Shown: positions 5,213 through 60,044 of the stretch, piece by piece | How the letters are laid out: each line of letters opens with the position of its first letter | Position numbering within the stretch: position 1 is the first letter of the stretch | Origin: Candidatus Doudnabacteria bacterium | GTDB lineage: Bacteria; Patescibacteriota; Doudnabacteria; UBA920 | NCBI GenBank assembly: GCA_963768175.1 | Contig: CAVYGQ010000001.1 | Coordinates: forward strand, 840,717 to 904,716 | Direction: 5' to 3' | DNA: 64,000 nucleotides | The notes under the pieces: model-generated | Told to the model about the DNA's origin: nothing | Database searches by the model: none | What the model saw: the letters and a program-made list of their open reading frames with translations, nothing else | Program-made: the position numbers and the translations under genes

Positions 5213-6199
5213 TTATAGCCTGCTAACTATTTTTGCCACGTTTCCATACATAATGCCGTAAATTTCATCATCCGTTAGTCCTGCTATTTCCGAGAGCTGT
5301 TCCGCAATAACCGACAGTTTTCCAATCTCATCAAACTCTTCAAAGAGATGTTGGGCGTCAAGCCCGCCGAAATCGGTCCCGATTGCCGAATATTCTGTTG
5401 AACCGGTTATATCACCGGCTTGTTTGTATGTTTCTATATAATTTTTGAAAGTTGGGAAAAAAGGATTTGCTGGCGTGAACCCGACCACTCCGCCGCGCTT
5501 GGCGATTTCTTTAAGTAATTCGGGAGTGATTAACCGCTGTTTTTCCGAACCCAGGCCGGTGTGGGTGGTGACAATTTTATTATAGTTTCGTACGCGCTCC
5601 AAAATATCGGCAGTAGTTTTGTGGTTGGCATGGGCGGTGTCTATTATCATTTTCAGCTCAACAAGCCGGTCAATTACTTTTTTTCCAAGGTCGGTCAAGC
5701 CCCTGTTTGGATCGCCTGACGAACCTCCGCCAAGCAGGTTGTCGTGGGAGTAGATTGGCCCAACTGACCTGACGCCGCGCGCATACAATTCGTCAGCTAT
5801 ATCGGGCGCAGTAACAATATCCCCGCCTTCTAAATGCAGGATGATTTGTTCTTGGCTGTAAGGCTGATTTTGCAAGCGTAAGTCTTGCGGTCGTGTAAGT
5901 ACTTTAAAGTCTTCGGTTGATTGGTAGTAATCGATCAACCTATTATATTCGTTGCGCACGCCTGCCAATACAACTTCATTTCCGGTTAAGGCGGCTTGTT
6001 TTATCTCCGTATTTGCCCGGCGGTAGATGGTGGCAAAATGCAAGTCTAGCAGTCTTAAGCCTTCGCGCGGCAATTGTTTGCCTCGTTCTTTGGCATGGGC
6101 AAGTTCGGGGTTGTTTAAAATTTGGCACAGCCAGGGATTGAGCCGGTCTTGGTGGAAATCCGCAGCGCGAAAATTTTTACCTTCCTTGGTGTTTAACAT
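5213..6199 (-). CDS. Membrane dipeptidase, peptidase M19 (renal dipeptidase) family
   Basis: An M19-like region (GLTDLGKKVIDRLVELKMIIDTAHA) and a 328 aa length. Confidence 0.6.
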   Translation of the reverse strand: MLNTKEGKNFRAADFHQDRLNPWLCQILNNPELAHAKERGKQLPREGLRLLDLHFATIYRRANTEIKQAALTGNEVVLAGVRNEYNRLIDYYQSTEDFKVLTRPQDLRLQNQPYSQEQIILHLEGGDIVTAPDIADELYARGVRSVGPIYSHDNLLGGGSSGDPNRGLTDLGKKVIDRLVELKMIIDTAHANHKTTADILERVRNYNKIVTTHTGLGSEKQRLITPELLKEIAKRGGVVGFTPANPFFPTFKNYIETYKQAGDITGSTEYSAIGTDFGGLDAQHLFEEFDEIGKLSVIAEQLSEIAGLTDDEIYGIMYGNVAKIVSRL

Positions 6200-10622: not shown

Positions 10623-11357
10623 ATGCAAGATAAGTTTGGCGGAAAAGAACCAAAGTATTACGATATTTTTACTGGTTTGTTTGTGGCAATATTGCTGATT
10701 TCAGAAATTACCTCTACAAAAATTGTGTCTTTGGGGTTTATCCAAACAGCAGGCGCCGCGGTGCTGTTCCCTATCTCTTACATTTTTAGCGATATTTTAA
10801 CCGAAGTTTACGGCTACGCCAGAGCCAGGCGCGTCATGTGGATCGGCTTTGCGTCTTTGGTATTGCTTTCAGCAATCTTAATTATTGTCCAGTATCTGCC
10901 GCCGGCGCCCTCCTGGCACAACCAGGCCGCTTACGACGTGATTTTGGGTGTTGTGCCCAGAATTTCCTTTGCCAGCGTGATAGCTTATTGGGCCGGCGGT
11001 TTTGCCAACGATTTAGTCTTGGCCAAAATGAAGCTTTTGACCAAGGGCAAATATTTGTGGACGCGCACCGTGGGCTCCACCGTGGTTGGCCAGGCCGTGG
11101 ACACTTTTTTGTTCCTTAGCATCGCGTTTTATGGTACCTTGCCCAACGCGGTTATTTTACAAATTATCTTCAGCTTTTATTTGTTTAAGTGCGGTTATGA
11201 AGTCGTAGCCACCCCGATTACTTATTTTGTGGTCAATAAATTAAAAAAGGCCGAAGGCCTGGATGTGTTTGATTACCATACCAATTTCAACCCTTTCAAG
11301 TTCAAGGTTGAAAATTCGGTAGACCAAGGGGCATCCTTGGACCCGGAACAATCTTAG
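10623..11357 (+). CDS. yhhQ: Queuosine precursor transporter (YhhQ/DUF165 family)
   Basis: A multi-TM protein carrying the SDILTEVYGYARARRV motif typical of DUF165/Vut transporters. Confidence 0.7.
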   Translation: MQDKFGGKEPKYYDIFTGLFVAILLISEITSTKIVSLGFIQTAGAAVLFPISYIFSDILTEVYGYARARRVMWIGFASLVLLSAILIIVQYLPPAPSWHNQAAYDVILGVVPRISFASVIAYWAGGFANDLVLAKMKLLTKGKYLWTRTVGSTVVGQAVDTFLFLSIAFYGTLPNAVILQIIFSFYLFKCGYEVVATPITYFVVNKLKKAEGLDVFDYHTNFNPFKFKVENSVDQGASLDPEQS

Positions 11358-11375
11358 ACCAAGGATGCCCCTTGG
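11324..11375. terminator. Perfect 17-bp inverted repeat (CCAAGGGGCATCCTTGG / CCAAGGATGCCCCTTGG) between convergent genes
   Basis: Seen directly in the sequence. A related copy lies at 57743-57781 after rnhB. Confidence 0.7.
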
Positions 11376-11377
11376 TA

Positions 11378-15967: not shown

Positions 15968-16056
15968 AATTTTCTACTAAATACTAAAATGGGCTAAATA
16001 CGAAACTTTGGATATCCGTTGTTTAGTATTTTGCTCCTTTTCGTATTTAGTAGAGG

Positions 16057-16683
16057 TTATCTTAATGGTTCCAAAACAACCACTTTTGTCCCCTCTTCCG
16101 GCAAATCTTTTTTCTTGAGCGTCAGTTTGTCCATTTCTTCCTTTTTCCCGCCCATTTCTTTGATAAACTTGTCCAAAGACTCCAAATCCAAAATTAACTC
16201 TTTGGTTTTATAATGGCTGGGGATGACAATTTTCGGCTCAACTTCGTTAATGACTTTGCCGGCGGCTGATGCCGAAAGCACCGTGTTGCCGCCGACGGGC
16301 AGAATTAAAATATCTATATCGCCCAGCTCTTCCAGCTCGTTTTCCGTTAAATTAAATTCTTTAATGTGGGTAAGGTTCAGTATACGGATGTCCTCGCTCT
16401 CAATTAAAAAGATCGTAATGTATTTGTTTTCCTGCTTTAAGGGTATCCCGGTGACCGTTACGCCTTTTATGTCGTATTCGCCGGGATCGGTAATGTCAAA
16501 ATGCCCGCCGGAAATGCCGGAGACAGCCGAGTAAAGTTTGCTGTTTTTTTGGGCCAAAATTAAAATATCAGCCGCTCCCCTTGGCGGAGTCAGGCCGGAG
16601 TCTTTATTAAACGGGTCGGTTATAATGGTGGCTAATTTGGTGCTGATTTTAAACGAAGATAAACCAAAATACTGGATTTGCAT
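16057..16683 (-). CDS. Metallo-beta-lactamase-fold hydrolase (UPF0173-like)
   Basis: MQIQYFGLSSFKI start, an HxHxDH-like core and ILILPVGG / PSHY motifs. The start is taken at the internal Met (16683); the upstream extension is Cys-rich and junk-like. Confidence 0.6.
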   Translation of the reverse strand: MQIQYFGLSSFKISTKLATIITDPFNKDSGLTPPRGAADILILAQKNSKLYSAVSGISGGHFDITDPGEYDIKGVTVTGIPLKQENKYITIFLIESEDIRILNLTHIKEFNLTENELEELGDIDILILPVGGNTVLSASAAGKVINEVEPKIVIPSHYKTKELILDLESLDKFIKEMGGKKEEMDKLTLKKKDLPEEGTKVVVLEPLR

Positions 16684-17361: not shown

Positions 17362-18588
17362 ATGTCAGAAGAAAAACAGCAAAATGTAATTCCGGCGGCC
17401 GCGGCTACGGCCCAAACCATGGGCGACTTGCTCGGTAGTGGGATTGAAATTAAAGTTTTAAAACAGGGTGATATGGTGGAAGGCACCCTGATTTCCGTAG
17501 GCAAGAACGAAGTCTACGTGGACTTGGAAGGCTATGGCGTAGGCGTAGTGCGCGGGCGCGAACTTTACGACGACGAAGCCACCCTTAGTGCGCTCAAACC
17601 CGGCGACAAAATTTTTGTTTCCGTGGTAGAGCCGGAAAATAAGGAAGGCATTTCGGAACTGTCTTTGCGTCAGGCCGGCCAAGAGCGGGTTTGGCAGACG
17701 CTTAAAGAAAAAATGGAAAACAAGGAAGTTTTGCGCACCAAAATTTTGGAAGCCAATAAGGGTGGGCTGATGGTGGAAATCAACAACGTTATGGGTTTTT
17801 TGCCGGTCTCCCAGCTGTCGCTTGAGCATTATCCGCGCGTGGAAGACGGCGATAAAAACCGGATTTTAGGCGTCCTGCAAAGTTACATTGGCCAGTTGTT
17901 TGACGTGCAGATTATTACTGCTGACTCCGCCGAGGAAAAATTAATCGTCAGCGAAAAAGCCGTATTTGAAAAAGAGATGGAAAATCGCCTGGGCCAGCTG
18001 AAAATCGGCATGGTGGTGGAAGGCGCGGTTACCGGCGTGGTGGATTTCGGCGCTTTTGTGAAGTTTGGCGAAATGGAAGGGCTGGTCCATATAAGTGAGC
18101 TTGCCTGGCAGAGAATCGAAAATCCTAAAGATATTGTAAAAGTCGGGCAAAAAGTAACGGCTAAAATTATTTCCATAGATAAGGGCCGCGTCTCTTTGTC
18201 CATTAAGCAGCTGCAGGAAGACCCGTGGCTGGAAGCGGTAAAGAAATATCAAATCGGCCAGACCGTAAAAGGCAAGGTTGCCAAAATTATGCCCTTTGGC
18301 GTGTTTGTGGAGCTGGATAAAGATATCCAAGGGTTAGCCCATGTTATGGAATTGTCCCACGAAGCCGTAAAAAATCCGGAAGATATTTTAAAGCCTGGCG
18401 AAGAAAAGGAATTTAAAATTATTTCCATTGAACCGGCCGAGCATCGTTTGGGACTTTCTTTAAAAGCTTTGCAGGAAGCGCCCAAGAAGATTGCAGAGCC
18501 GCTGGTTGAAACTCCGCCAGTCGCAGATTCAAAACAGCAAGAAGAACCGGAGAAAGAAAACGAAGTCGTCCCGGAAGAAGCTAAGTAA
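17362..18588 (+). CDS. rpsA: 30S ribosomal protein S1 (four S1 domains)
   Basis: Repeated S1 domains (GDMVEGTLISVGKNEVYVDLEGYGVGVV and similar), 408 aa. Confidence 0.88.
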   Translation: MSEEKQQNVIPAAAATAQTMGDLLGSGIEIKVLKQGDMVEGTLISVGKNEVYVDLEGYGVGVVRGRELYDDEATLSALKPGDKIFVSVVEPENKEGISELSLRQAGQERVWQTLKEKMENKEVLRTKILEANKGGLMVEINNVMGFLPVSQLSLEHYPRVEDGDKNRILGVLQSYIGQLFDVQIITADSAEEKLIVSEKAVFEKEMENRLGQLKIGMVVEGAVTGVVDFGAFVKFGEMEGLVHISELAWQRIENPKDIVKVGQKVTAKIISIDKGRVSLSIKQLQEDPWLEAVKKYQIGQTVKGKVAKIMPFGVFVELDKDIQGLAHVMELSHEAVKNPEDILKPGEEKEFKIISIEPAEHRLGLSLKALQEAPKKIAEPLVETPPVADSKQQEEPEKENEVVPEEAK

Positions 18589-22459: not shown

Positions 22460-23924
22460 ACTGCCAAACGTCCGCGGCCGGTTTGCTGGCCGGGTTTTCT
22501 TTGAAGTAGATTTTACGATTCTTTAGGGGCGTCCAGTCAGACGGCGTGGAAATAAAGTCGCCGAGATAAGGTTTTGCAATATCCAGCACAAAATCGTGCG
22601 GCAAGTCGTCAGGCAGGCAAATACCTTTTTTCGGATTTTCAAACATCCATAGTACGGCGGCAATTACGCCTAGCGCGACCTGTAAAGTGGTGGCATTTTG
22701 GCCAGGTGCCAGCCTCCGGGCTTCCTGTATGCTTAAATCGCTCCCTGTCCACCAAGAATTATACCGATGCCCCATCAGTAGCGCGCCTAAAATGTCCGCC
22801 CCGGAAGTAATCTCATCTTCCAAAATTCTTATCTTGGACTGCATTTCGTAATTCCTGCCGCGAAGTTCGCATAAAGAAGATAGTGTTTCGTGGCACGGCA
22901 TATACGCGTAATGCACTGTCGGGCGGTAAACTGCCCTATCTCCATCCCAAACTGTTAACCTGTCGGATAACCCAAATGCTTCGCCGTGGCGAATGACCAT
23001 GCCCACAATTTCTTCGTTGGGAATCCATGACCTTACCCAGGTATTAATTCCCATTTGGGAGAGCATAATCTGATTTTTTGGCCCGTAAGGCGGAATATTA
23101 GCCAAGTCCGGTAGCCTTTGTTCGTGTGTGCCCCAACCCATCTCGGCCGGCGCGGTTCCTTCTTCCCGCAAGCCTTCCACGCTCCAGGTTCCTACAAATT
23201 CATCAACTTCTTTTGGGCGATTGGTAATTTGCGTGTCGCGCTCGCTGCAGTGGATTACTTTGATTCCCAATTTTTGTCCGAGCAAATTGAATTTGAGGTT
23301 TTTAATATAATTTTCCAGTTCTTCCCTGTCTTTGCCAGCCACTTTTTTATCTGCGATTGTTTTATTGCCGATATCAATCAATCCTTGTTTGACAAAATGG
23401 GAGATCAAACCGGGGTTTGCGCCATGGTCCACGACTGCCGTAGTGGCGTCTTTCCAGTCTTTGGACATGTCGTGCAGTTTCATTTGGCGCCAGTAAAGCG
23501 ATTTTTCAAATGGGCTGTCAGTAAATAATCCCTTAATGGAATCCCAGATTTCAACCGAAGTATTTACATACAAAACATTATGGTCGTGGCACCAGCCGAT
23601 AATATCATTAGCACCAATATTCCATGCCAAATCTATAATCAGGCCGCCCTTGTCTGTGTATTTGGCCAACTCCGGGCCTAGGTTTTCCGGCGTAATCCTG
23701 TTGCGTACAAATTTGATGCCCTTGTCCGTGAATTTTTTTAAAGCCGCTGCTTTGTCTTCAAAATCCATTACCGTGACGTTTTTTGGGTCAACCTCAATTT
23801 TTTCCAGCAGAATCGGCAGGGTGCACTGCGACACCGCGCCATAACCGATAATCAAAATTTTGCGGTCAAACTTTTTTTTTCCGCCGGAGGCGGATCCGCC
23901 TTTAGCGGACATACGTTTTTCCAT
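22434..23924 (-). CDS. hss: Homospermidine synthase / saccharopine-dehydrogenase-family enzyme
   Basis: NAD-binding N-terminus (ILIIGYGAVSQCTLPILLEK) and 496 aa. An in-frame AKGGSASGG cassette sits near the N-terminus. Confidence 0.55.
   Translation of the reverse strand: MEKRMSAKGGSASGGKKKFDRKILIIGYGAVSQCTLPILLEKIEVDPKNVTVMDFEDKAAALKKFTDKGIKFVRNRITPENLGPELAKYTDKGGLIIDLAWNIGANDIIGWCHDHNVLYVNTSVEIWDSIKGLFTDSPFEKSLYWRQMKLHDMSKDWKDATTAVVDHGANPGLISHFVKQGLIDIGNKTIADKKVAGKDREELENYIKNLKFNLLGQKLGIKVIHCSERDTQITNRPKEVDEFVGTWSVEGLREEGTAPAEMGWGTHEQRLPDLANIPPYGPKNQIMLSQMGINTWVRSWIPNEEIVGMVIRHGEAFGLSDRLTVWDGDRAVYRPTVHYAYMPCHETLSSLCELRGRNYEMQSKIRILEDEITSGADILGALLMGHRYNSWWTGSDLSIQEARRLAPGQNATTLQVALGVIAAVLWMFENPKKGICLPDDLPHDFVLDIAKPYLGDFISTPSDWTPLKNRKIYFKENPASKPAADVWQFENFRFIP
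23880..23903. repeat. 24-nt palindromic cassette AAAGGCGGATCCGCCTCCGGCGGA (in minus orientation) in frame in hss
   Basis: Identical 24-mers occur at 44773-44796 (murA) and 53990-54013 (murF). Each encodes KGGSASGG. Confidence 0.85.
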
Positions 23925-32440: not shown

Positions 32441-32548
32441 GACGTCATTCCGAGCGCCTGCAATATCGCGCGAGGAATCTCTTATTGGCAGTTCGTTATT
32501 TAAGAGATCCTTCACCCTTCGGATGCACTCGGGGTTCAGGATGACGCC
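32441..32548. repeat. Palindromic element of the GGCGTCATYCTGA...TCAGGATGACGCC family (copy A, intergenic, degenerate left end)
   Basis: It shares the GAGATCCTTCACCCTTCGGATGCACTCGGGGTTCAGGATGACGCC right half with copies at 43990, 54177 and 57344. Confidence 0.8.
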
Positions 32549-32618
32549 GCTAATTTGGATGTTTGAGCCTTGAAAAATGTCAGTACTTGGGGTATAATCT
32601 ATAGGCAAATTTGATAAT

Positions 32619-37396: not shown

Positions 37397-39331
37397 TTAT
37401 AACGTCTTCTGTTTTATCTTTTCCTCAAAACTCTCCAAGACATCCCCGACTAAAATTTTAATCGGGGTTTTTATTTTCATGCCGAATTCTTCGCCGGAGT
37501 TTACCGACTTAGATATAACTTTGCTTTGCTGGAGCTCCTCAATTTCTCCGCGGCCTAGCTCGGTATCGGCTCGCCAAACGTTAATGTGGCTGGTCTTTTT
37601 TAACAAGCCTTCTTCCACGCGGCCGCCAACAATCATTTGGCCTTTTTCCGTCATAAAAATTGCTAGAACTTTAGCCTTGCCTAAAACGTGTTTTTCCAGC
37701 TCAGGCGTAAACATCTTTATAACCGCCGAAGTAATATCTTCCAAAAGTTCGTAAATGACGTCGTAGGTATCTATAATAACCTTTTTTTGCTTGGCTAAAT
37801 TAATGGCTTTGGGGTTTACTTTGGTGCGAAAGCCGACAATTACGGCTTTGGAGCTGCCGGCGAGCAAAACATCGGACTCGTTAATTTCCCCCACGCCTTC
37901 GCTTAAGATGTTAATTTTAACCTCATCATTTTTTAATTTGGCCACGCTCTGTTTAATGGCTTCCAGCGAGCCGGCTACGTCGGTTTTTAAAATCAAATTT
38001 AAAGTTTTATTTTCCAAATTCCCCACAATGGCTTGTTTGCTGGAAAGTTTGTGGCTGTGGTTTTTGCGCTGGACCAAAACGGCAATAGCCTTGGCTTCGT
38101 CCAAAGTCGCGGTGGTCTGCAAAATGTCGCCGGCCTGCGGAACTTCCGAAAGCCCGGAAATTTGCGCGGCCGTGGAAGGCGTGGCTTCTTTAAGCTTGCG
38201 GCCGGTCTCGTCTTCCAGGCTCCTGACCCTGCCAAACGCGGCGCCCGCGGCAAAAATATCGCCAACCCTTAGCGTGCCGTTTTGCACCATAACCGTGGCC
38301 GTGGCCCCTTTGCCCTGGGTGATTTTGCTTTCTATAATTGTGCCCACCATTTTGCCGTGCGGGTTGGCGCGCAAATTTTCCATTTCCGCCGTCAGTAAAA
38401 TCATTTCTAAAAGCTGGTCTATGCCCTTGTTTTGTTTGGCGGAAATTTCGCAGGCAATGACCTTGCCTCCCCATTCTTCGGTAAGCACCCCTTGACCGGC
38501 CAGCTCTTGCTTAACCCTGGTAACGTTGGCTTCGGGCTTATCTATTTTGTTTATGGCCACAATCATGGGCGTGTTGGTGAATTTGGCGCGATTGATGACT
38601 TCCAAAGTCTGCGGCCTGACGCCGTCGTCCGCTGCCACAACCAACACGATAATGTCCGTTACGTTGGCACCGCGCGAACGCATCTCAGAAAAAGCTTCGT
38701 GGCCAGGAGTGTCCAAAAAAGTTATCCATTTGTCGTTTTTCTTTACTTTGTAGGCGCCAATATGCTGGGTAATGCCGCCGCTTTCGCCTTCGGCCACTTT
38801 GGTTTTACGGATGGTATCCAAGAGTGTGGTTTTGCCGTGGTCAACGTGTCCCATAATGGCAACTATGGGCGGGCGCGGTTTTAGGTTTTCTTCTTTTTCA
38901 GCTTTTAAGACTTCGTTTAAAAACCCTAAGCCGTATTCCGCTACGCTCTGGTCAGCTTCTGTCTCTACCTCAAAACCTAAATCCTGGGCCACAATGCTGG
39001 CGGTATCAAAATCTATTTCCTCGTTAATGGAAGCCATGACCCCGTTGTTTATCAGCACGGTAATAACTTTGGTTACCGGCAATTTTAACAGTAAGGCAAA
39101 ATCGCGGACTTTAATGAACGAAGGCAATTTAACTTTTATTGGCGTAATAGGAAGGCTGGTCGAAGATCCTGAGCGATTAGTCGAGGGACCAAAAGCTTCC
39201 AGCAGTTTTCGCGCTACGTAATTGTCTACCTTGTTGGCTTTGGGCGAAATGAAATAGCCTTTCTCCTTGGCCTTAAGGCGAACGTCTTGTATGGACATAT
39301 TCAGTTGTGAGGAGAGAGATGAGAGGTTCAT
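37397..39331 (-). CDS. infB: Translation initiation factor IF-2
   Basis: G-domain [15 protein letters not shown] and DTPGHEAF motifs, 644 aa. Confidence 0.93.
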
Positions 39332-39417
39332 GTTTTATTCCTCTCCTTTTTAAGGAGAGGCTAGGTGAGGTTATTTTGCGTTTAACTTATTGATTATACT
39401 CATAAATCTTAATAAAA

Positions 39418-40876: not shown

Positions 40877-40962
40877 CAGCCAATGTGTTCAAAAACCGGC
40901 GGTTGTTCGGCGTTAGGAGGCGCGCGAACTACTGACCGGTTTTGTTTTGGCAGAATTGTTTA

Positions 40963-40994
40963 CTTGCTAAACTCACGGCCGTGAGTTTAGCAAG
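40963..40994. terminator. Perfect palindrome CTTGCTAAACTCACGGCCGTGAGTTTAGCAAG (a family member is at 60009-60040)
   Basis: A 14-bp stem lying between convergent genes. Confidence 0.65.
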
Positions 40995-40995
40995 T

Positions 40996-43455: not shown

Positions 43456-43989
43456 ATCTAAGCTATTGTAGCACTAGTTATGGCTTGCGTTCAAATGATA
43501 AATTGTATCATTATCCTTTATCTTTTATCCTTGACAACCTTCGCTTGGTAAAGGATAATGGATAAAAGATTAAAGATAAATTTATTATGTCCAAAAAGCA
43601 CAAAAGAAGCGATTACCAAATACCCCAGCAAGCCGGTATTTCCCATGCCGCGGAATACCGCATTATTAAGTTTGATTTGGTAAAAGTGGTAATTTTAAAC
43701 CTTGTTTATTTAGCGGTTATTTTGTCGTTGTATTTTGGCAACCAGCATACGCATTTTTTGGATAACTGGTTTGCGAAACTTCTCCATTTCTAGTTTATCT
43801 TTGAACAACGGGCATCATTGGTCTTAGAAATATTTCAATCCAATGGTGCCCGTTGTTACCTTTTGTTATAGACGCCCCATAATGGGCGGGTTTTGTCATA
43901 TATGATATAAAGTGGATAATTTTGGTTGACCAAAGGGCAAAAATTTGCTAAAATTGTAATACATATATCACATACGATAGTTTCCCTTT

Positions 43990-44075
43990 GGCGTCATCCT
44001 GAGCGTAGCGAAGGATCTCATTAAAGAAAGAGATTCTTCACCCTTCGGATGCTACTTCAGGTTCAGAATGACGCC
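43990..44075. repeat. Palindromic element GGCGTCATCCTGAGC...TTCAGAATGACGCC (copy B, intergenic, upstream of murA)
   Basis: Terminal inverted repeats plus an internal palindrome, GAAGGATCTC..GAGATTCTTC. Confidence 0.8.
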
Positions 44076-44094
44076 TTAGGAAAGAAAATATTAT

Positions 44095-45648
44095 ATGCAA
44101 AACCTTATAAAGGATCAGCAGAAAATCGGCCAGTTTATAGCCGAAGTCCGTGAGCTTAAAGGCTTTACCCAAAGCCAGTTTGCCAAAAGCTTAAAAACCA
44201 GCCAGTCAGCCGTAGCCAGGATGGAAAGCGGCCAGCAAAACTTAACTACAGAGATGCTGGCTAAGATTAGCGCAGTTTTGAACCATGAAATTATTACGTT
44301 GGCCGACAAGTCGGTAAATTTTAAAATAGAAGGCGGGCGGAAACTTTCGGGAAGGGTCGCGGTTAATACTTCCAAGAATGCCGCGGTGGCGCTGTTGTGC
44401 GCTTCTTTGCTTAATGAAGGTAAAACTATTTTTAAGAATGTGCCTAAAATAGAGGAAGTCTACCGGGTAATTGAAGTTTTGGTCAGTCTTGGCGTCTCGG
44501 TAAAATGGCAGGGCGCGGATGTGGAAATTTTGCCGGGCAAAAAAATTACCATAAATAAAATAGACAAAGAAGCCGCGGTTAAAACCAGAAGCGTTCTTAT
44601 GCTGCTTGGGCCTTTGGCTCATATTCTTCCCGCTTTTAACCTGCCTTTGGCCGGCGGCTGCAAACTGGGCGAACGGACCGTGAGGCCGCATTTGTTTGCT
44701 TTGGAAAAGCTTGGAGTTAAAATTCAGACCCATCATGACCATTACGCCGTAAGCTCGGCTAAAGCTCCCGCCAAAGGCGGATCCGCCTCCGGCGGAAAAA
44801 CCGCGGAGGTAGTGCTTTACGAAATGGGTGACACAGTGACGGAAAACACGCTTATGGCCGCGGCAAAAATAAACGGCGTGACCACCATCAAGCTGGCCTC
44901 TTCCAATTACATGGTGCAGGATTTATGTCATTTTTTGCAAAGTTTGGGCGTAAAAATTGAAGGCGTGGGTACCTCCACCTTAAAAGTGCATGGCAAACCG
45001 CACATTAACCAGCGTGTGGTCTTTTATTTAAGCGAAGACCCCATAGAAGCCATGCTGTTTTTGTCTTTGGCTGTCACCACAAATTCTTCCATAACCGTTG
45101 AGCGCTGCCCCATAGACTTTTTGGAGCTGGAACTGTTGAAATTGGAAAAGATGGGGTTTAAGTACCGGATTATTAAGCGTTATAAAAGCCATAACGGTAT
45201 TACCAATTTGGCAGATATTAAGACTTTCCCGTCTAAATTAATCGCGCTGGAAGAAAAAATCCACCCGTTGACGTCCTCGGCCGGAATTAATATAGATAAC
45301 CTGCCGTTTTTTGTGCCCATTGCCACCCAGGCCAAAGGCACCACGCTGATTCACGACTGGGTTTACGAAAATCGCGCTATTTACTATTTGGAATTAAATA
45401 AGCTGCGGGCCAATATAATTTTGGCCGACGCCCACCGCGTTTACATAGACGGCCCGACCGAACTTAAAGCAGGCGAAGTCATTTGTCCCCCTGCCCTGCG
45501 CCCGGCCGCGATAATTCTAATTGCGATGTTAGCCGCCAAAGGCACCTCTATTCTCCGCAACGTTTATTCCATAAACCGCGGCTATGAGAATTTGGTGCAG
45601 CGATTACAGAAGCTCGGAGCCAAGATCGAAATGATACATGGCATGTAA
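44095..45648 (+). CDS. murA: UDP-N-acetylglucosamine 1-carboxyvinyltransferase fused to an N-terminal XRE-type HTH domain
   Basis: Residues 1-65 form an HTH_3 domain (IGQFIAEVRELKGFTQSQFAKSLKTSQSAVARMESGQQNL). The MurA core follows (KLSGRVAVNTSKNAA...). An in-frame AKGGSASGG cassette is also present. Confidence 0.85.
   Translation: MQNLIKDQQKIGQFIAEVRELKGFTQSQFAKSLKTSQSAVARMESGQQNLTTEMLAKISAVLNHEIITLADKSVNFKIEGGRKLSGRVAVNTSKNAAVALLCASLLNEGKTIFKNVPKIEEVYRVIEVLVSLGVSVKWQGADVEILPGKKITINKIDKEAAVKTRSVLMLLGPLAHILPAFNLPLAGGCKLGERTVRPHLFALEKLGVKIQTHHDHYAVSSAKAPAKGGSASGGKTAEVVLYEMGDTVTENTLMAAAKINGVTTIKLASSNYMVQDLCHFLQSLGVKIEGVGTSTLKVHGKPHINQRVVFYLSEDPIEAMLFLSLAVTTNSSITVERCPIDFLELELLKLEKMGFKYRIIKRYKSHNGITNLADIKTFPSKLIALEEKIHPLTSSAGINIDNLPFFVPIATQAKGTTLIHDWVYENRAIYYLELNKLRANIILADAHRVYIDGPTELKAGEVICPPALRPAAIILIAMLAAKGTSILRNVYSINRGYENLVQRLQKLGAKIEMIHGM
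44773..44796. repeat. 24-nt palindromic cassette AAAGGCGGATCCGCCTCCGGCGGA in frame in murA
   Basis: Identical to the copies in hss and murF. Confidence 0.85.
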
Positions 45649-48284: not shown

Positions 48285-48524
48285 TTATTTTTTTATCAGT
48301 TTTAACTTTTTTATCCGTGGCCACTTTTTTATTTCCGCCTCGCGCTTAAGCGCCTTGCCCCAGCTCTTGAATTTTTCATGGTAAACAATTTTTCCGCCGC
48401 CGTGGGCGATTACATATTTGGAACCTTTACCGGAATTGTGTTTTTGCTCCCGCTTTTTTAAATCCTTGGCGCTGCCGGAATATAGCGTGCCGTCTTTGCA
48501 TTTTAGGATGTAGAAATAGAACAT
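48285..48524 (-). CDS. GIY-YIG nuclease-family small protein (UPF0213-like)
   Basis: FYFYILKCKDGTLYSGSAKDLKKREQKH. Confidence 0.65.
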   Translation of the reverse strand: MFYFYILKCKDGTLYSGSAKDLKKREQKHNSGKGSKYVIAHGGGKIVYHEKFKSWGKALKREAEIKKWPRIKKLKLIKK

Positions 48525-48570
48525 GTCTTTACTTAAGTTCGGATTATAGCTAAAATTATAGAGATTTACT

Positions 48571-48602
48571 GGGCCTATAGTAAAGTGGTATTACGCGGCA
48601 TT
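48571..48602 (+). other. tRNA-like 5'-half fragment (a diverged duplicate of the tRNA-Ala 5' half)
   Basis: gggcctatagtaaagtggtattacgcggcatt compared with the intact gggcctatggtccagtggtaagacacggcatt. Confidence 0.5.
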
Positions 48603-48639
48603 TTCACCCCGTCACTAAATTGCATACAATACAAATGCT

Positions 48640-48713
48640 GGGCCTATGGTCCAGTGGTAAGACACGGCATTCGCATTGCCGGGACGCGAGTTCGATTCTC
48701 GCTAGGTCCACCA
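48640..48713 (+). tRNA. tRNA-Ala (anticodon CGC)
   Basis: G3:U70 pair, anticodon arm CGGCA-TTCGCAT-TGCCG, CCA encoded. Confidence 0.75.
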
Positions 48714-48743
48714 GCGTTTAGTGACGGGGCGAGTTGCTGAGGC

Positions 48744-48771
48744 GGGAGTTCGATTCTCCCTGGGTCCACCA
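48744..48771 (+). other. tRNA-like 3'-half fragment (T-arm, acceptor and CCA)
   Basis: gggagttcgattctccctgggtccacca. The inverted repeat ccccgtcactaaa/tttagtgacgggg brackets the intact tRNA. Confidence 0.5.
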
Positions 48772-51949: not shown

Positions 51950-52783
51950 ATGGCTATTTCTAACGGGGTGAATAAGCAGGTTGTTATAAACAATCTTTTG
52001 ATTAGTTACAGCGAGGTACAAAGCGGCGGCGCTCAAACGCTGTTGTTTTTGCATGGCTGGCGGAGCCAAAAGGAAGTTTGGCTGCCGGTAATCCAAAAGT
52101 TGTCGGTCATAAACAGTCAGTTATCAATTTACGCAATAGATTTGCCTGGATTTGGCGGGTCGCAAGCTCCAACCACCCCGCCCCGTCAGACGGGCCACCC
52201 CTCCTTAAATAAGGAGGGGAATACTGCAGGATGGACGGTGGGGGATTATGTGAATATTGTTGCGGAATTTATTGGGAAATTAGAATTAAAAAATGTCATC
52301 GTTGTTGGCCATTCTTTTGGCGGCAGGGTGGCTATAAAATTAGCTTCGGTAAATCCGAAATTGGTAAATAAAGTGGTGTTGGTGGATAGCGCTGGATTTG
52401 CTATGGAAGCATCAAAGAAAAAATTGGCGGCCTTAGCCGCAAAAATTGTTAAACCGGTTTTTAAGCCCAAAGTCATGCAGGGACTACGCAAAAAAATTTA
52501 TCAGACAATCGGCGCGGAAGATTACGTAGCCATCCCGGAACTGCAAAAAACTTTTGTGAACGTTACGAACGAGGATTTGTCGGATGACATGAAAAAAATA
52601 CAGGCACCTACTCTTATAATTTTCGGGGAAAACGATAAAGAAACGCCGGCAACTTACGGCGAGTTAATGAAGTTTTTAATCCCAAAATCCAAATGCTTAA
52701 TTTTGAAAGGCACTGGGCACTTTAGTTTTTTGGAAAGGCCGGAGGAATTTGTAAAAATATTAAGTGATTTTATTCTATCTTAA
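51950..52783 (+). CDS. Alpha/beta-hydrolase-fold protein with an in-frame hairpin insertion
   Basis: LLFLHGW and GHSFGG nucleophile-elbow motifs. The start is taken at the ATG at 51950. The extra segment APTTPPRQTGHPSLNKEGNTAGW is encoded by hairpins at 52180-52219. Confidence 0.7.
   Translation: MAISNGVNKQVVINNLLISYSEVQSGGAQTLLFLHGWRSQKEVWLPVIQKLSVINSQLSIYAIDLPGFGGSQAPTTPPRQTGHPSLNKEGNTAGWTVGDYVNIVAEFIGKLELKNVIVVGHSFGGRVAIKLASVNPKLVNKVVLVDSAGFAMEASKKKLAALAAKIVKPVFKPKVMQGLRKKIYQTIGAEDYVAIPELQKTFVNVTNEDLSDDMKKIQAPTLIIFGENDKETPATYGELMKFLIPKSKCLILKGTGHFSFLERPEEFVKILSDFILS
52198..52219. repeat. Hairpin CCCCTCCTTAAATAAGGAGGGG inside the alpha/beta hydrolase gene (family members at 59294-59320 and 59361-59385)
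   Basis: A perfect 9-bp stem with a 4-nt loop. The similar hairpins are CCTCCCCTTAGAATAAGGGGAGG and ACCCCCTCTTATGAATAAGAGGGGGT. Confidence 0.65.
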
Positions 52784-52819: not shown

Positions 52820-54403
52820 ATGGACTTGTTTGTTCCAAAATTTATCCAATACCAATTATACCTGCTCCAGCTGGAAAATTATGAGCTGGGAAGGTATTGG
52901 AAATTGCTTATAAAAAAGGGAGTTTTCCCTAAAAAAAGCCAACCTTTGCGCAAAGAGCTGGTCTGGACCGCTAAAGCTCGGGCGTTAATGCTTATGGCTG
53001 TGGCCCTGCATGGTTTGGTGGTCGTTTTGGTTGGGCTTATGGTTTTAACTTTAAAGCCGGGCATAGATAACTTTTTTACCACAATAATTTTGGCGGTATT
53101 AATTTTGTTGCCGTTTTATTTTGTTTTTTTCAGTCTGGCTTTGTTAATCCTTAAGCCTTTGGACACTCTGGTAAAACAAAGCCTTGTGGCTAAAGCCAAA
53201 ACCAAGCTGGCTGGATTGCCTGATGTCAAGATAATCGGCGTTGCCGGCAGTTACGGCAAAACTACAATGAAGGAAGTGTTGAGGGCAGTGCTAAGTGCTA
53301 AGTTCAAAGTGCTAAGTACGCCGGAGAGCATAAACACGCCGGTGGGGATTGCCAGATGGATTATAAATAAAATAACGGACGAAACCCAAATTCTGATTGT
53401 AGAAATGGGGGAGCATTATGAGAAAGACGTTAAAGAAATTTGCGATATAGCAAAACCCGACATCGCGGTGGTTACCGGCATTAACGAATCCCACTTGGAG
53501 CGGATGAAAAAAATGGATACGGTTATTGCCACAATTTTTGAAATCGTGAGTAACGCCCAGCCCGGCGCGGCTATTGTGCTAAACGGCGATGATCGCAGGG
53601 TTATGGAGAATTATAAAAAATTTGTCTGGCCAGACCATCGGCTGGAATTTTTTACAAAAAATCCCGGCAGTGAAAAGTGTAAAGTGAAAAGTGCAAAGTT
53701 TAACACAGACAAGCTGTGTTGGAATTTAGAGATTGATGATCTTGGCTCGGTAGAACTGGATTTACTTGGGGAATACGCGTTGGGCGACGTTGACGCGGCC
53801 GTGAAAATTGCCAAAAGTTTGGGTATGAGCAATGAGCAAATTATCGCGGGGATCAAAAATATCAAGCCCGTGGAGCACAGGCTCCAGCCGATAAAGTCTG
53901 CCACGAATGTTTTGGTAATAGACGACAGTTACAACGGCAATTCCGACGGAGTAGTGGAAGCCATAAAAGTTTTGTCGCGCTTTTCCGCCAAAGGCGGATC
54001 CGCCTCCGGCGGAGAAGGCCGCCGGAAGATTTATATCACTCCCGGGCTGGTGGAAATAGGCAAAAGTTCCGCCGATATTCATCGCAGTATTGGCAAACAG
54101 CTGGCGGACGTTGCGGATGTGGTTATTTTGATAAAAAATAGCGCGACGGGGTTTATTGAAGAGGGAATCCTCTTAGGGCGTCATTCTGACCCTGAGCGGA
54201 GCGAAGGGGAAGAATCTCAAACTAAGGATAAAGAGATCCTTCGTCCCTCGGATGCACTCGGGGCTCAGGATGACGCCGCTGGTAAGAGACCAAGAATTAT
54301 CTGGTTTAATTCCGCCTTGGAAGCGTACGCGGGGCTAAAAGACATTTTAAAACCCGGGGATGTAATTTTGTTTCAGAACGATTGGGGAGACCAGTATTTG
54401 TAA
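52820..54403 (+). CDS. murF: UDP-N-acetylmuramoyl-tripeptide--D-alanyl-D-alanine ligase with an N-terminal TM extension and two in-frame repeat insertions
   Basis: Mur ligase ATP-binding motif GVAGSYGKTTMKE. Two in-frame inserts are present: the KGGSASGG cassette at 53990 and a palindromic element of about 100 nt at 54177-54277. Confidence 0.85.
   Translation: MDLFVPKFIQYQLYLLQLENYELGRYWKLLIKKGVFPKKSQPLRKELVWTAKARALMLMAVALHGLVVVLVGLMVLTLKPGIDNFFTTIILAVLILLPFYFVFFSLALLILKPLDTLVKQSLVAKAKTKLAGLPDVKIIGVAGSYGKTTMKEVLRAVLSAKFKVLSTPESINTPVGIARWIINKITDETQILIVEMGEHYEKDVKEICDIAKPDIAVVTGINESHLERMKKMDTVIATIFEIVSNAQPGAAIVLNGDDRRVMENYKKFVWPDHRLEFFTKNPGSEKCKVKSAKFNTDKLCWNLEIDDLGSVELDLLGEYALGDVDAAVKIAKSLGMSNEQIIAGIKNIKPVEHRLQPIKSATNVLVIDDSYNGNSDGVVEAIKVLSRFSAKGGSASGGEGRRKIYITPGLVEIGKSSADIHRSIGKQLADVADVVILIKNSATGFIEEGILLGRHSDPERSEGEESQTKDKEILRPSDALGAQDDAAGKRPRIIWFNSALEAYAGLKDILKPGDVILFQNDWGDQYL
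53990..54013. repeat. 24-nt palindromic cassette AAAGGCGGATCCGCCTCCGGCGGA in frame in murF
   Basis: Identical to the copies in hss and murA. Confidence 0.85.
54177..54277. repeat. Palindromic element GGCGTCATTCTGA...CTCAGGATGACGCC (copy C), inserted in frame near the murF C-terminus
   Basis: It encodes GRHSDPERSEGEESQTKDKEILRPSDALGAQDDAA and keeps the reading frame. Confidence 0.85.
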
Positions 54404-57010: not shown

Positions 57011-57739
57011 ATGACTTTTAGATACGAAAACCAAAAGTACAAACAAGGCTATAGCCATGTTATCGGCTGTGATGAAGTGGGTAAGGGCAGTTTGGCCGGG
57101 CCGGTGGTCGCGGTGGCAATAATATTGGATTTAAGATGTAAGATTAAAGATTTAAGCGAAGTCAGGGATAGTAAAATGTTGTCTCAAGAACAGAGGGAAA
57201 AACTTCAACCATTGATAAAGCAACATTGCCTGGCTTGGGGGATAGGCGTAGTCGATGAAAAAACTATAGACAAAATAAATATTCACCGCGCAACCTTGGC
57301 CGCGATGAAACTGGCTGTGGGAAATTTGTTGGCCTCTTTCTCCGGCGTCATTCTGAGGCCAAAGTGCTACTCCGAGGCTGAAGAATCTCAAACCGGGAAG
57401 AGATCCTTCGCCCGCACTGATAACTCCAGGGAACGGGCCCAGGATGACGCCGCTAAAGGAGTTTTGGTAGCCATAGACGGCAAGTTTATTATCCCCGATT
57501 TGAATTTGGAACAGGAAGCCGTAGTAGGAGGCGACAATAAAATTCTTTCCGTTGCTGCTGCCTCCATTGTTGCCAAAGTTTACCGCGATGATTTGATGCG
57601 CAAGCTTCATCGTCAATATCCGGTTTACAATTTTGCCCGGCACAAAGGCTACGGCACTTTGTTTCATCGAACAATGATTAAACAAAATGGTCTGTCGCCA
57701 ATACATCGCAGAAGTTTTTGCAAAAACCTATCAATTTAA
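57011..57739 (+). CDS. rnhB: Ribonuclease HII with an in-frame palindromic element insertion
   Basis: DEVGKGSLAGPVVAVA (DEVGRG motif). It is 242 aa against about 200 typical. The insert at 57344-57452 encodes VILRPKCYSEAEESQTGKRSFARTDNSRERAQDDAA. Confidence 0.85.
   Translation: MTFRYENQKYKQGYSHVIGCDEVGKGSLAGPVVAVAIILDLRCKIKDLSEVRDSKMLSQEQREKLQPLIKQHCLAWGIGVVDEKTIDKINIHRATLAAMKLAVGNLLASFSGVILRPKCYSEAEESQTGKRSFARTDNSRERAQDDAAKGVLVAIDGKFIIPDLNLEQEAVVGGDNKILSVAAASIVAKVYRDDLMRKLHRQYPVYNFARHKGYGTLFHRTMIKQNGLSPIHRRSFCKNLSI
57344..57452. repeat. Palindromic element GGCGTCATTCTGA...CCCAGGATGACGCC (copy D), in frame in rnhB
   Basis: Terminal inverted repeats shared with copies A, B and C. Confidence 0.85.
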
Positions 57740-57742
57740 TCC

Positions 57743-57781
57743 ACAAGGGGCATCCTTGTGCTGCACAAGGATGCCCCTTGT
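57743..57781. terminator. Inverted repeat CACAAGGGGCATCCTTGTG / CACAAGGATGCCCCTTGTA 3' of rnhB (related to 11324-11375)
   Basis: Seen directly. Confidence 0.7.
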
Positions 57782-57963: not shown

Positions 57964-59286
57964 ATGAAAAAATATTACGGTGAGCAAACGCAAAAAGCCA
58001 TCAGAAATTTTCCTTTCCACGTTTACCGCGTGCACAGCGAATTTATTATGGCTCTGGCCATGATAAAGCGCTCTGCCGCTATTGCCAATTGCGAAGCGGG
58101 TAATTTTAGCCAGAGCATTAAAGGCGCGATTGTAAAAGCTTGTGATGAAATTTTAGCCGGCAAAATGCTCGACCAGTTCCCGTTAAGGGCCCTGCAGGGC
58201 GGAGCAGGCACTTCCATTAATATGAACGTGAATGAGGTAGTAGCTGCCCGGGCCACGGAAATATTGGAAAAGCAGGGCAAGAAAATCGTGGTTCATCCGA
58301 ACGATCATGTAAATTGCAGTATGTCTACAAATGACGCTAACCCCTCGGCCATTAAAATCGCCTCCATTTTTTTAGCCCGTGACTTGCAAAAGACCACGGC
58401 AATTTTGGCTAACGCCTTGGAAGCCAAAGCCAGGGCGTATAAAAACATTATTAAGCTTGGGCGCACTCATTTGCAGGACGCAGTGCCAACAACTCTGGGC
58501 GCGGTCTTTGCTTCTTATGCTGGCATTGTCCGTTGGCATCAGGAAAAAATAAACCGGGTTATCTCCTATATGCAGGAGCTAAATTTAGGAGGCACGGTTT
58601 TGGGTAATAGCATTAATGCCAGTCCAAAATATATTAAAGTAGTATATCGTGAGCTAAATAAACTTACTAAACAGAATTTTCACCCGGCAAAAAATTTAAT
58701 GTCCCAGACTTCCAGCCAGACCGACTTTTTGGCCATTTCTCAGGCAGTTACGGCCCTGTGCGTGGATTTATCCAAAATAGCCAATGATTTAAGGCTACTC
58801 TCCAGTGGGCCGCGCGGCGGCATCGGCGAAATTACCTTGTTGGAACTGCAAAAAGGCTCTTCTATTATGCCCGGAAAAGTGAACCCGGTATTGCCGGAAA
58901 CCGTAAACCAACTTTATTTTTTAATTTCTGGTAACAATTTAACCATTGAACATGCCGCCGCCGCCGCGCAATTTGAACTGGGCGTGATGTTTCCGATTAT
59001 CGCCGACCGCTTGCTTCAAAGCTTAAAATTGACTTCAGAAGTGATTGAACAGTTTGTGAAGGTATGCATTAATAAGATTAAAGCCAATCCTAAGCGTTGC
59101 AAGGAGCTTTTAGAAAAATCCACGGCTTACGCCACGCTATTTAGCCCCAAACTTGGTTACGACGCCACGGCAGAGCTTGTCAAAGAATCGGTTAAAAGCG
59201 GCAAAACTATCCGCGAACTGGTTTTGGGGAAAAAGCTAATGGCTAACAAAGAGTTTGAGGCGGTGGTGAAATCTTTTAGACCGTAA
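57964..59286 (+). CDS. Aspartate ammonia-lyase / class II fumarase family enzyme
   Basis: GSSIMPGKVNP signature, 440 aa. Confidence 0.75.
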   Translation: MKKYYGEQTQKAIRNFPFHVYRVHSEFIMALAMIKRSAAIANCEAGNFSQSIKGAIVKACDEILAGKMLDQFPLRALQGGAGTSINMNVNEVVAARATEILEKQGKKIVVHPNDHVNCSMSTNDANPSAIKIASIFLARDLQKTTAILANALEAKARAYKNIIKLGRTHLQDAVPTTLGAVFASYAGIVRWHQEKINRVISYMQELNLGGTVLGNSINASPKYIKVVYRELNKLTKQNFHPAKNLMSQTSSQTDFLAISQAVTALCVDLSKIANDLRLLSSGPRGGIGEITLLELQKGSSIMPGKVNPVLPETVNQLYFLISGNNLTIEHAAAAAQFELGVMFPIIADRLLQSLKLTSEVIEQFVKVCINKIKANPKRCKELLEKSTAYATLFSPKLGYDATAELVKESVKSGKTIRELVLGKKLMANKEFEAVVKSFRP

Positions 59287-59399
59287 TTTCAGGCCCCTCC
59301 CCTTAGAATAAGGGGAGGCAGGGAGGGGATATTATTCGAGGATAAATATCATCCTCTAACCCCCTCTTATGAATAAGAGGGGGTAACTCGTATCTATTT

Positions 59400-60044
59400 A
59401 TGTACATAGACCTCTCCCACATTTTTAATAACAACATGCCAGTTTACCCCGGCGATCCAGAGCCGGAGCTGGTTAAAATTGCCTCTGTGGGAAAAGACGG
59501 TTTTGCAAACCACCAGCTTAAAACCACCATGCATGTGGGCACGCATATGGATGCGCCGGCGCATATGATTCAAGATGGAAAATATTTGTCCGATTATCCG
59601 GCGGGGAAATTTTTTGGTCGTGGTGTTATAATCGACGCCCGTGGAAAGCCGTTGGCCGATGCCAATTTGTTGGCAAGTCACGAAATCCAGGCCGGCGATA
59701 TAGTAATAGTTAATTTTGGATGGGCACAAAATTTTGGCAGGGATGAATATTATAAAAAATATCCCGAACTGACCGAAGCTTTTGCAAAAAAATTAATTGA
59801 TCTTGGCGTTTCCATCGTGGGCACGGATACCCCAAGTCCGGATCGCCCGCCTTACAATGCCCATAAAATTTTACTTTCACATGATATCTTAATTATCGAA
59901 AACCTTACAAACCTGGAAGCCCTTATCGGCAAAACAAACTTTGAAATTATTGCTCTCCCAGCTAAATTTGCAGCCGAGGCCGCGCCTTGCAGAGTTGTGG
60001 TAAAGCTACTTGCTAAAACCGCGGCCGCGGTTTTAGCAAGTTAA
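59400..60044 (+). CDS. Cyclase-family protein (kynurenine formamidase-like)
   Basis: HVGTHMDAPAH motif. The C-terminal 12 aa are encoded by a palindromic repeat. Confidence 0.7.
   Translation: MYIDLSHIFNNNMPVYPGDPEPELVKIASVGKDGFANHQLKTTMHVGTHMDAPAHMIQDGKYLSDYPAGKFFGRGVIIDARGKPLADANLLASHEIQAGDIVIVNFGWAQNFGRDEYYKKYPELTEAFAKKLIDLGVSIVGTDTPSPDRPPYNAHKILLSHDILIIENLTNLEALIGKTNFEIIALPAKFAAEAAPCRVVVKLLAKTAAAVLAS
60009..60040. repeat. Perfect palindrome CTTGCTAAAACCGCGGCCGCGGTTTTAGCAAG overlapping the cyclase gene 3' end
   Basis: A family member of the palindrome at 40963-40994. Confidence 0.7.

Follow-up and report, generated by a model that had tools for sequence, protein, structure and literature searches.

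Small palindromic repeat elements within and between genes of a Candidatus Doudnabacteria genome

We analyzed a 64,000-nucleotide (nt) stretch of DNA from Candidatus Doudnabacteria bacterium (GenBank assembly GCA_963768175.1, contig CAVYGQ010000001.1, positions 840,717 to 904,716; hereafter the window), in which an alpha/beta hydrolase gene carries a perfect hairpin with a pyrimidine-rich and a purine-rich arm, read in frame, and two similar hairpins (A and B) lie between an aspartase/fumarase-like gene (57964-59286) and a cyclase gene (59400-60044) (Table 1). These three hairpins, along with a smaller one adjacent to the coding copy (CCCGTC-A-GACGGG, 52182-52194), are present as described in an earlier reading made from the letters alone (hereafter the sequence-only reading), and the three are confirmed as real and far above chance. 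Pyrimidine-arm/purine-arm hairpins of at least 8 bp number three in the window (at 39340, 52198 and 59296, with the hairpin at 59359 falling outside this count as it narrowly failed the pyrimidine filter) vs. 0.3 per window in 20 dinucleotide shuffles, and a degenerate pattern for the hairpin type gave 0 matches in 100 shuffles. The DNA of 52168-52234 folds with a z-score of -3.2, and the hydrolase segment is identical in the independent Logan assembly of run ERR10755942, which excludes an assembly artefact at this site. We assign the coding hairpin and the intergenic pair to two families, F1 and F2/E1, of what are probably small mobile or selfish repeats; the additional hairpin at 39340-39360 is of the same general type, and we claim membership of neither F1 nor F2 for it.

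Comparison of the hydrolase with its relatives indicates that its hairpin is inserted repeat DNA and not a conserved part of the protein, as the sequence-only reading had supposed. The segment is translated as ...APTTPPRQTGHPSLNKEGNTAGW..., in the sole stop-free frame among the three sense frames of the element, and the catalytic GHSFGG motif of the enzyme is intact. Spacing between PGFG and GHSFGG is 33 residues in 95 of the 120 closest homologs—the basal loop length—vs. 50 in the window protein, and P0001, the exact match of the window protein, is alone among these 120 in carrying the peptide. This exact match is encoded on a 949,077-bp contig, and homologs that bear a name belong to Doudnabacteria or the Patescibacteria group. 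DNA alignment against three insert-free orthologs likewise shows a single gap of net 51 nt (17 codons). Orthologs thus exist that lack the segment, and further copies of the element are found elsewhere, the two outcomes whose opposites the sequence-only reading had listed as counting against it. Judged from these alignments, the hairpin is a DNA insertion and not ancestral. Some insert is present at this same first loop (after DLPGFGxS, window 52160-52235) in 25/120 homologs, where it derives from several element types.

An AlphaFold2 model of the hydrolase (mean predicted local distance difference test score (pLDDT) 82, predicted template modelling score 0.82, core above 90) places the added residues ~75-94 as coil with pLDDT 46-70, between a strand (58-63) and a helix (97-110), suggesting that the insert probably encodes a surface loop that is tolerated and disordered. 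We also observed hairpin-derived peptides at a second loop, after KLAxxxP, which again differ by lineage (homologs P0001-P0120); across the two or three hydrolase loops, peptides such as PNPPLRRGGE, PLPKGEGE, SPSPSKGG and PLDKLGTP vary with lineage. As a separate matter, the purine arm was considered as an internal ribosome-binding site, with an in-frame GTG 18 nt and an out-of-frame ATG 11 nt downstream, and both starts were judged implausible.

The inserted segment is a copy of a larger element, F1, whose layout consists of A-CCACCCCG, a variable GC hairpin (hairpin 1), and a second hairpin (hairpin 2) made up of CACCCCTCCT, a loop and AGGAGGGG-A. The window copy matches this family pattern exactly and also has the conserved A directly 3' of hairpin 2 (52220). 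It looks 3'-truncated because a third hairpin is present as its left arm only (AATACTGCAG); this hairpin is complete in other low-GC or Patescibacteria-type copies, with counterparts AATACTGCagggGGCAGTATT in locus L218, ACTACTGCAactGCAGT in L083 and AACACTGCAG in L009. Three related genomes (L083, L009 and L038) have a multi-hairpin insert of ~115 nt in their Mur ligase genes, and the hydrolase segment looks like its left half.

In metagenomes, the full F1 pattern occurs at no fewer than 120 loci and comprises at least 144 distinct copies, from contigs with a GC fraction of 0.37-0.70. Conservation of the box and hairpin 2 in this set is partly imposed by the search pattern, and less biased evidence comes from two flanking positions that the pattern left free—A in 98% of the 144 listed copies before the CCACCCCG box, and A in 94% of them after AGGAGGGG—as well as from a scan of IMG/VR viral contigs that required hairpin 2 alone (CACCCCTCCT-N3-7-AGGAGGGG), in which 38/53 distinct matches have CCACCCC(G) at most 50 nt upstream, followed by a short GC hairpin. 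In hairpin 1, by contrast with the box and hairpin 2, the sequence varies and the structure is retained. There are 102 distinct hairpin 1 sequences among the 144 listed copies; a stem of 4 bp or longer forms in 121/144 vs. 25/144 when shuffled. In a gap-free subset, 89% of cells are paired vs. 68% in shuffles (0/500 as high), and the covariation score is 0.48 vs. at most 0.22 in slid controls. Hairpin 1 is near-identical in 20% of within-contig F1 pairs vs. 4.2% of between-contig pairs, a difference that, as a sequence pattern, fits intragenomic copying of F1.

F1 copies are mostly extragenic and often arranged as inverted pairs or clusters, with some copies in frame in real genes. Inverted pairs are spaced 15-25 nt apart (doublets in L136, L165, L116, L188 and L101), fully palindromic cloverleaf forms occur in L116 and L165, and a tandem cluster of three doublets lies between pal and ybgF on a contig whose TolB matches Burkholderiales TolB. 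Contigs of other genomes hold multiple copies; the inverted doublet is not seen for the window copy. An oxidoreductase of Pyrinomonadaceae (Acidobacteria) has a single (ENHPVDEASTPLLRKEGSF) or double inverted F1 in some orthologs and none in others, and in-frame doublets are found in P0149 and P0163 (taxon labels for F1 hosts are the source names of homologous proteins throughout). Translation of F1 uses either strand and different frames (TTP..., NHP..., SPP.EGGV...), so no particular peptide is being conserved. A Pfam scan of the 148 open reading frames (ORFs) adjoining F1 matched 171 families, each seen in two ORFs at most; F1 is tied to no one gene, and the idea of a gene-specific cis-regulator was rejected. 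The idea that pyrimidine/purine arms are special for avoiding stops found no effect either, with 4.65 open frames of 6 in F1 vs. 4.53 in composition-matched shuffles. Among cultured phages and plasmids, F1 matches are marginal or partial (best E ~0.3-1). The literature, searched by topic and by sequence string, yielded no description of F1, F2 or in-frame palindromes in Patescibacteria, which is not proof of novelty.

The two intergenic hairpins, on the evidence of their sequence relatives, are arms of one copy of a second family, F2/E1, in which they flank a central hairpin. The sequence-only reading had taken the coding and intergenic hairpins as one type occurring both in frame and between genes. 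Related elements do occur in both settings, but the three hairpins make up two families, because the hydrolase copy comes with a box at its 5' side and a variable hairpin upstream, and the intergenic two form the outer pair in one element of three hairpins. This composite has stop codons in all six frames and an RNA fold of -47.8 kcal/mol (z = -4.3, 59288-59392). Its central hairpin is the counterpart of the outer arms GGGAGGGGTTA / TAACCCCTCCC found on either side of single F2 hairpins elsewhere. The hairpin A stem is identical in L082, a syntenic relative, and in 23 IMG/VR loci, the hairpin B stem is found in L082 (10379, 16026, 5792) and in 29 IMG/VR loci, and about half of the IMG/VR loci with an A or B stem have outer arms TAAC(N)CCCC / GGGG(N)GTTA.

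One relative of the window composite lies in L082 (16026-16117 within an element at 16018-16118), with 83.7% identity over 92 nt in the opposite orientation, and this copy supplies the last 28 amino acids of RNase HII. A second L082 composite, at ~5700-5815, is intergenic and matches the window composite in part; both L082 sites are non-orthologous to that of the window. At the window RNase HII end, the slot of the L082 composite is filled by a different 39-nt palindrome, and no target-site duplication is visible there. The L082 5700-5815 copy also has an additional small hairpin (CCCCGTA cttga TACGGGG) lodged between its hairpin A and central arm, an example of an element inserted in another. 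On two phage-like IMG/VR contigs (L291 and L303), F1 in reverse orientation and an F2 hairpin B lie ~25 nt apart, so both families can share a genome.

Table 1. Hairpins, repeat elements and host gene discussed in the text, by window position
Feature	Position	Strand	Description
Pyrimidine/purine hairpin of similar kind	39340-39360	-	CCTCTCCTT aaa AAGGAGAGG, followed by 8 nt and the ATG of a 644-aa gene (37397-39331)
Alpha/beta hydrolase gene, 277 aa	51950-52783	+	From ORF list; exact match P0001; Abhydrolase Pfam domains
F1 copy	52171-52231	+	In frame (TTPPRQTGHPSLNKEGNTAG); matches family pattern exactly
F1 5' box ACCACCCCG	52172-52180	+	First base (52172) is the conserved A preceding CCACCCCG
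F1 hairpin 1 CCCCGTCAGACGGGC	52181-52195	+	Stem CCCGTC/GACGGG; the part that varies in sequence and keeps structure
Hydrolase hairpin (F1 hairpin 2)	52198-52219	+	CCCCTCCTTA aa TAAGGAGGGG, perfect 10-bp stem
AATACTGCAGGA	52220-52231	+	Left arm only of a third hairpin
Three-hairpin composite, F2/E1	59294-59386	n/a	~93 nt; intergenic
Hairpin A	59296-59318	n/a	CCTCCCCTTA gaa TAAGGGGAGG, 10-bp stem
Central hairpin GGGAGGGGATATT...AATATCATCCTCT	59322-59357	n/a	From fold and from comparison with L082 and viral-contig copies
Hairpin B	59359-59384	n/a	ACCCCCTCTTAT ga ATAAGAGGGGGT, 12-bp stem

Turnover of elements of this general kind is visible when six syntenic genes are compared between the window and L082 and L083, where nearly all indels of at least 6 amino acids are palindromic elements. 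For instance, a 30-nt double hairpin (TCCGCCAAAGGCGGATCCGCCTCCGGCGGA, translated SAKGGSASGG) in the window Mur ligase (53984-54013) has no counterpart in the Mur ligases of L082 and L083 and recurs in identical form in the Ddl and RNase HII genes of L083. Such occurrence in different genes of different genomes is the clearest sign of mobility in these sequences. At another Mur ligase site, after GFIEEGI, the window and L082 hold a 105-nt element of another family and L083, L009 and L038 hold an F1-type composite. The window contains at least 12 in-gene copies from five or six palindromic families, and the load of small palindromes in these genomes is thus heavy and shifting, with only frame-keeping copies at tolerant sites staying visible.

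Among these other families, the 30-nt double hairpin consists of TCCGCCnnnGGCGGA twice and occurs at window 53984-54013, 44768-44800 and 23876-23909 and at L083 14529-14558 and ~15490. The ~105-nt element has terminal inverted repeats GGCGTCATTCTGA...TCAGGATGACGCC and is in frame in two genes (…SEGEESQT…AQDDAA…), with sites at ~54185-54290 (Mur ligase), ~57345-57455 (RNase HII), 32502-32551 and 44028-44077, as well as in L082, L009 and L004. A further family, ACAAGGGGCATCCTTG...CAAGGATGCCCCTTGT, is found at 57743-57781, 11323-11376 and 43804-43857, the 57743 copy occupying the slot of the L082 F2 composite, and another, ACTTGCTAAA...TTTAGCAAGT, at 40962-40995 and 60008-60041, with one copy forming the 3' end of the cyclase ORF.

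Direct observations are that the elements belong to families, that copies are present at some orthologous sites and absent from others, that copies lie in unrelated genes and genomes, and that copies on one contig are more alike than those on different contigs, along with the conserved sequence of the F1 box and hairpin 2 and the conserved structure of hairpin 1. [quoted passage not shown] F1 would have inserted into the DNA encoding a surface loop just after the DLPGFGGS strand, and may persist there because the net 51 nt are a multiple of three and lie in the sole open frame, and because a Pro/Ser...Lys/Glu/Gly loop is tolerated. Copying would proceed at the DNA level through a trans-acting enzyme that recognizes the conserved box and hairpin 2, selection would then filter insertions for frame and tolerated location, and most copies would be neutral or slightly deleterious passengers. 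As for the enzyme, analogy with REPs and their REP-associated tyrosine transposases (RAYTs) and with IS200/IS605, in which hairpin binding by a Y1 nuclease is coupled to the reading of a short single-stranded motif beside it, makes a hairpin-binding HUH/Y1 nuclease the first candidate, a choice of enzyme class in which we place much lower confidence than in the repeat nature of the hairpins.

Several observations weigh against reading the hairpins as mobile repeats. No target-site duplication is visible at the hydrolase junctions in the empty-site alignment, and no transposase or RAYT was seen near F1 among the top 25 of the 171 families listed from the 148-ORF Pfam scan, where a single-copy gene would escape. 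The 64-kb window holds one F1 copy and one F2 composite, so there is no sign of recent activity in this genome. The 27 fixed nt of F1 are near-identical across at least three phyla, which is unusual for REP-type elements and could mean a conserved function, although part of this conservation is ascertainment, as the search patterns fixed those nt. Finally, the same protein loops and intergenic slots hold different hairpin elements in different lineages, and such slot reuse fits simple random transposition only if selection or targeting is added.

In the surroundings of these elements we also noted a tRNA-like gene (48570-48771) that is seemingly split by a ~124-nt insert, with a 5' part at 48571-48606 and a 3' part at 48731-48771 ending in CCA. 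The insert is edged by a 13-bp inverted repeat (CCCCGTCACTAAA / TTTAGTGACGGGG) and holds a complete tRNA-Ala(cgc) at 48640-48713, to whose matching halves the split halves are 82-84% identical. Adjoining the split tRNA is a small GIY-YIG-like ORF (48285-48524, minus strand), and other stand-alone small GIY-YIG ORFs are found in L082 (3079-3366), L083 (6325-6666) and L157. DUF559, a Vsr-like nuclease, is among the few families seen twice beside F1. We regard the GIY-YIG ORFs and DUF559 as weak leads toward candidate mobilizing nucleases.

The explanation that competes most seriously is that the hairpins are functional RNA—terminators, 3'-end stabilizers or switches that sequester the Shine-Dalgarno (SD) sequence, with the coding copy acting as an mRNA pause or stability element—which we think improbable. 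The very stable folds (z = -3.2 and -4.3) and the covariation of F1 hairpin 1 are what such a role would predict. Against it, F1 sits beside 171 gene families, in both orientations, and in at least three reading frames inside genes, with no Rfam match: against Rfam 15, the window at gathering threshold gave tRNAs only, and five copy-rich loci searched at E at most 1 gave nothing at element positions. The sequence-only reading had raised the possibility that the intergenic copies act as SD sites or terminators. F1 hairpin 2 does form an SD/anti-SD-like duplex, and the hairpin at 39340-39360 places AAGGAGAGG 8 nt before a start codon, making it the only hairpin of the kind that lies at a correct SD distance. 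However, 16 nt separate the end of the hairpin B purine arm from the cyclase ATG (59400), the arm is fully paired within an 11-12-bp stem, and an SD-like core at 5-13 nt is found for only ~5/47 window ORFs of at least 150 amino acids (~90% lack one, with start sites taken from crude ORF calls), making an SD role for the intergenic hairpins unlikely. A terminator role is also unlikely, given that T-runs are absent after 52219, 59318 and 59384 and that none of these elements was picked up by a terminator scan, whereas the evident terminators of this genome have the form A-run, stem, loop, stem, T-run. Conservation across phyla would suit contact with universal machinery, the ribosome for example. 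F2 arms are not followed by start codons more often than expected, an ATG or GTG lying within 16 nt of the right arm in 12/37, about chance level, and we do not claim an association of F2 with start codons.

Apart from the hairpins, AT-rich DNA lies ahead of many window starts, and several genes (e.g., at 17362 and 30660) have a TATAAT-like hexamer only a few bases upstream of the ATG, a hint that translation in this organism begins in a leaderless or SD-independent way.

We give very little credence to an origin of the hairpins in situ, e.g., through template switching or snap-back synthesis where loop-coding DNA is hypervariable, with their likeness being compositional and no mobile family involved. 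Such an origin could account for the different pyrimidine/purine hairpins held by the same hydrolase loop in 25/120 homologs, and a CCA-NNN-ACC-like stretch reminiscent of the 5' box is already there at empty sites. The family evidence largely refutes it, since the 27-nt pattern and the unforced conserved positions recur at well over 150 loci of unrelated genomes, identical 30-nt elements occur in different genes of related genomes, and copies on the same contig share a hairpin 1 variant. Equally hard to credit is that the inserted peptide was selected for protein function, as an interaction or flexible lid loop to which the palindrome is incidental, since the kept frame, the intact catalytic motifs and the one fifth of homologs with some insert at this loop are set against loop peptides that differ between lineages and come from several element types, the use of either strand and of different frames of the same DNA element in other proteins, the low model confidence of the segment, and the extragenic position of most F1 copies.

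Returning to mobile repeats, a broader reading that joins these strands together strikes us as possible and rather doubtful. It holds that F1 is a pan-bacterial mobile hairpin module, also present on phage-like contigs, whose code—ACCACCCCG plus the SD/anti-SD-like CCCCTCCT/AGGAGGGG—has been kept across at least Patescibacteria, Acidobacteria and Burkholderiales with hairpin 1 free to vary, that it is moved by a widespread enzyme or held constant by a universal machine such as the ribosome, and that F1 and its sister families are the main source of protein-length variation in Patescibacteria.

These findings bear on how proteins of this group are read. Much of the length variation of conserved enzymes in the ultra-small genomes of Patescibacteria appears to be due to tiny palindromic DNA parasites and not to adaptive protein evolution, and the palindrome load matters for the annotation, alignment, phylogeny and structure prediction of proteins from the candidate phyla radiation. 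It also explains recurrent odd peptides in metagenomic proteins, such as TTP...PPL..GGE, NHP...PLLRKEG and SAKGGSASGG. The same 27 nt in several phyla and on phage-like contigs offer a concrete code with which to seek the spreading enzyme or vector, and, as the spread of REP-type elements is still poorly understood, F1 provides a handle on it.

Among known repeat systems, the small dispersed repeats of heterocystous cyanobacteria were reportedly described by Elhai et al. in 2008 (Genome Res) as hairpin repeats of tens of nt, proposed to move via RNA intermediates. They are like the elements here in being very small hairpin repeats with compensatory stem changes, nested insertions (cf. L082 5700-5815) and diverse contexts that include genes, and differ in sequence and host range; RNA intermediates are neither favored nor disfavored by our data. 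The PeSL cassettes of T4-type phages are said (Arbiol et al., 2010) to combine an early promoter with a stem-loop and to be specific to phage lineages. As repeated intergenic stem-loops across phage genomes they recall the numerous F1 and F2 copies of IMG/VR contigs, whereas no promoter was identified in F1 or F2.

As with MITEs, the elements are non-autonomous, structured, dispersed and sometimes part of ORFs, and prokaryotic MITEs can create in-frame fusions, e.g., the QMITEs of Coxiella (PMC5896051) and the ERIC and Correia elements (reviewed in PMC10969869). [quoted passage not shown]

RPEs (Ogata et al. 2000, 2002, summarized in PMC10969869) are ~100-150 bp in length and confined to Rickettsia, with one conserved peptide reported per family. 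The elements here share with them the nature of dispersed palindromes in frame in unrelated housekeeping genes, at sites where the fold tolerates them and in host proteins that are apparently functional. They differ in length (30-115 nt, with a hydrolase insertion of 51-60 nt) and in their Patescibacteria host, and F1 further differs in that several frames and either strand are read and that copies extend to phage-like contigs and to three phyla or more; F1 is set apart from RPEs here by size and host. REPs and REPINs are likewise short GC-rich imperfect palindromes that are mostly extragenic and form inverted doublets and tandem clusters resembling bacterial interspersed mosaic elements (as in L188), with a single-stranded conserved 5' head beside the hairpin and families within genomes (PMC3733652, PMC3116915, PMC8266576). 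The F1 head, however, is ACCACCCCG (A-CCACCCCG), compared with GTAG or CGTC in REPs, and the account of the GTAG and CGTC super-families (PMC3733652) contains none of the F1 strings GGAGGGG, CCCCTCC, CCACCCC and GGGGTGG. F1 is also not species-specific, being near-identical in Patescibacteria, Acidobacteria and Burkholderiales, and has copies inside coding sequences. F1 works like RPEs and like REPs and REPINs, and belongs to neither group.

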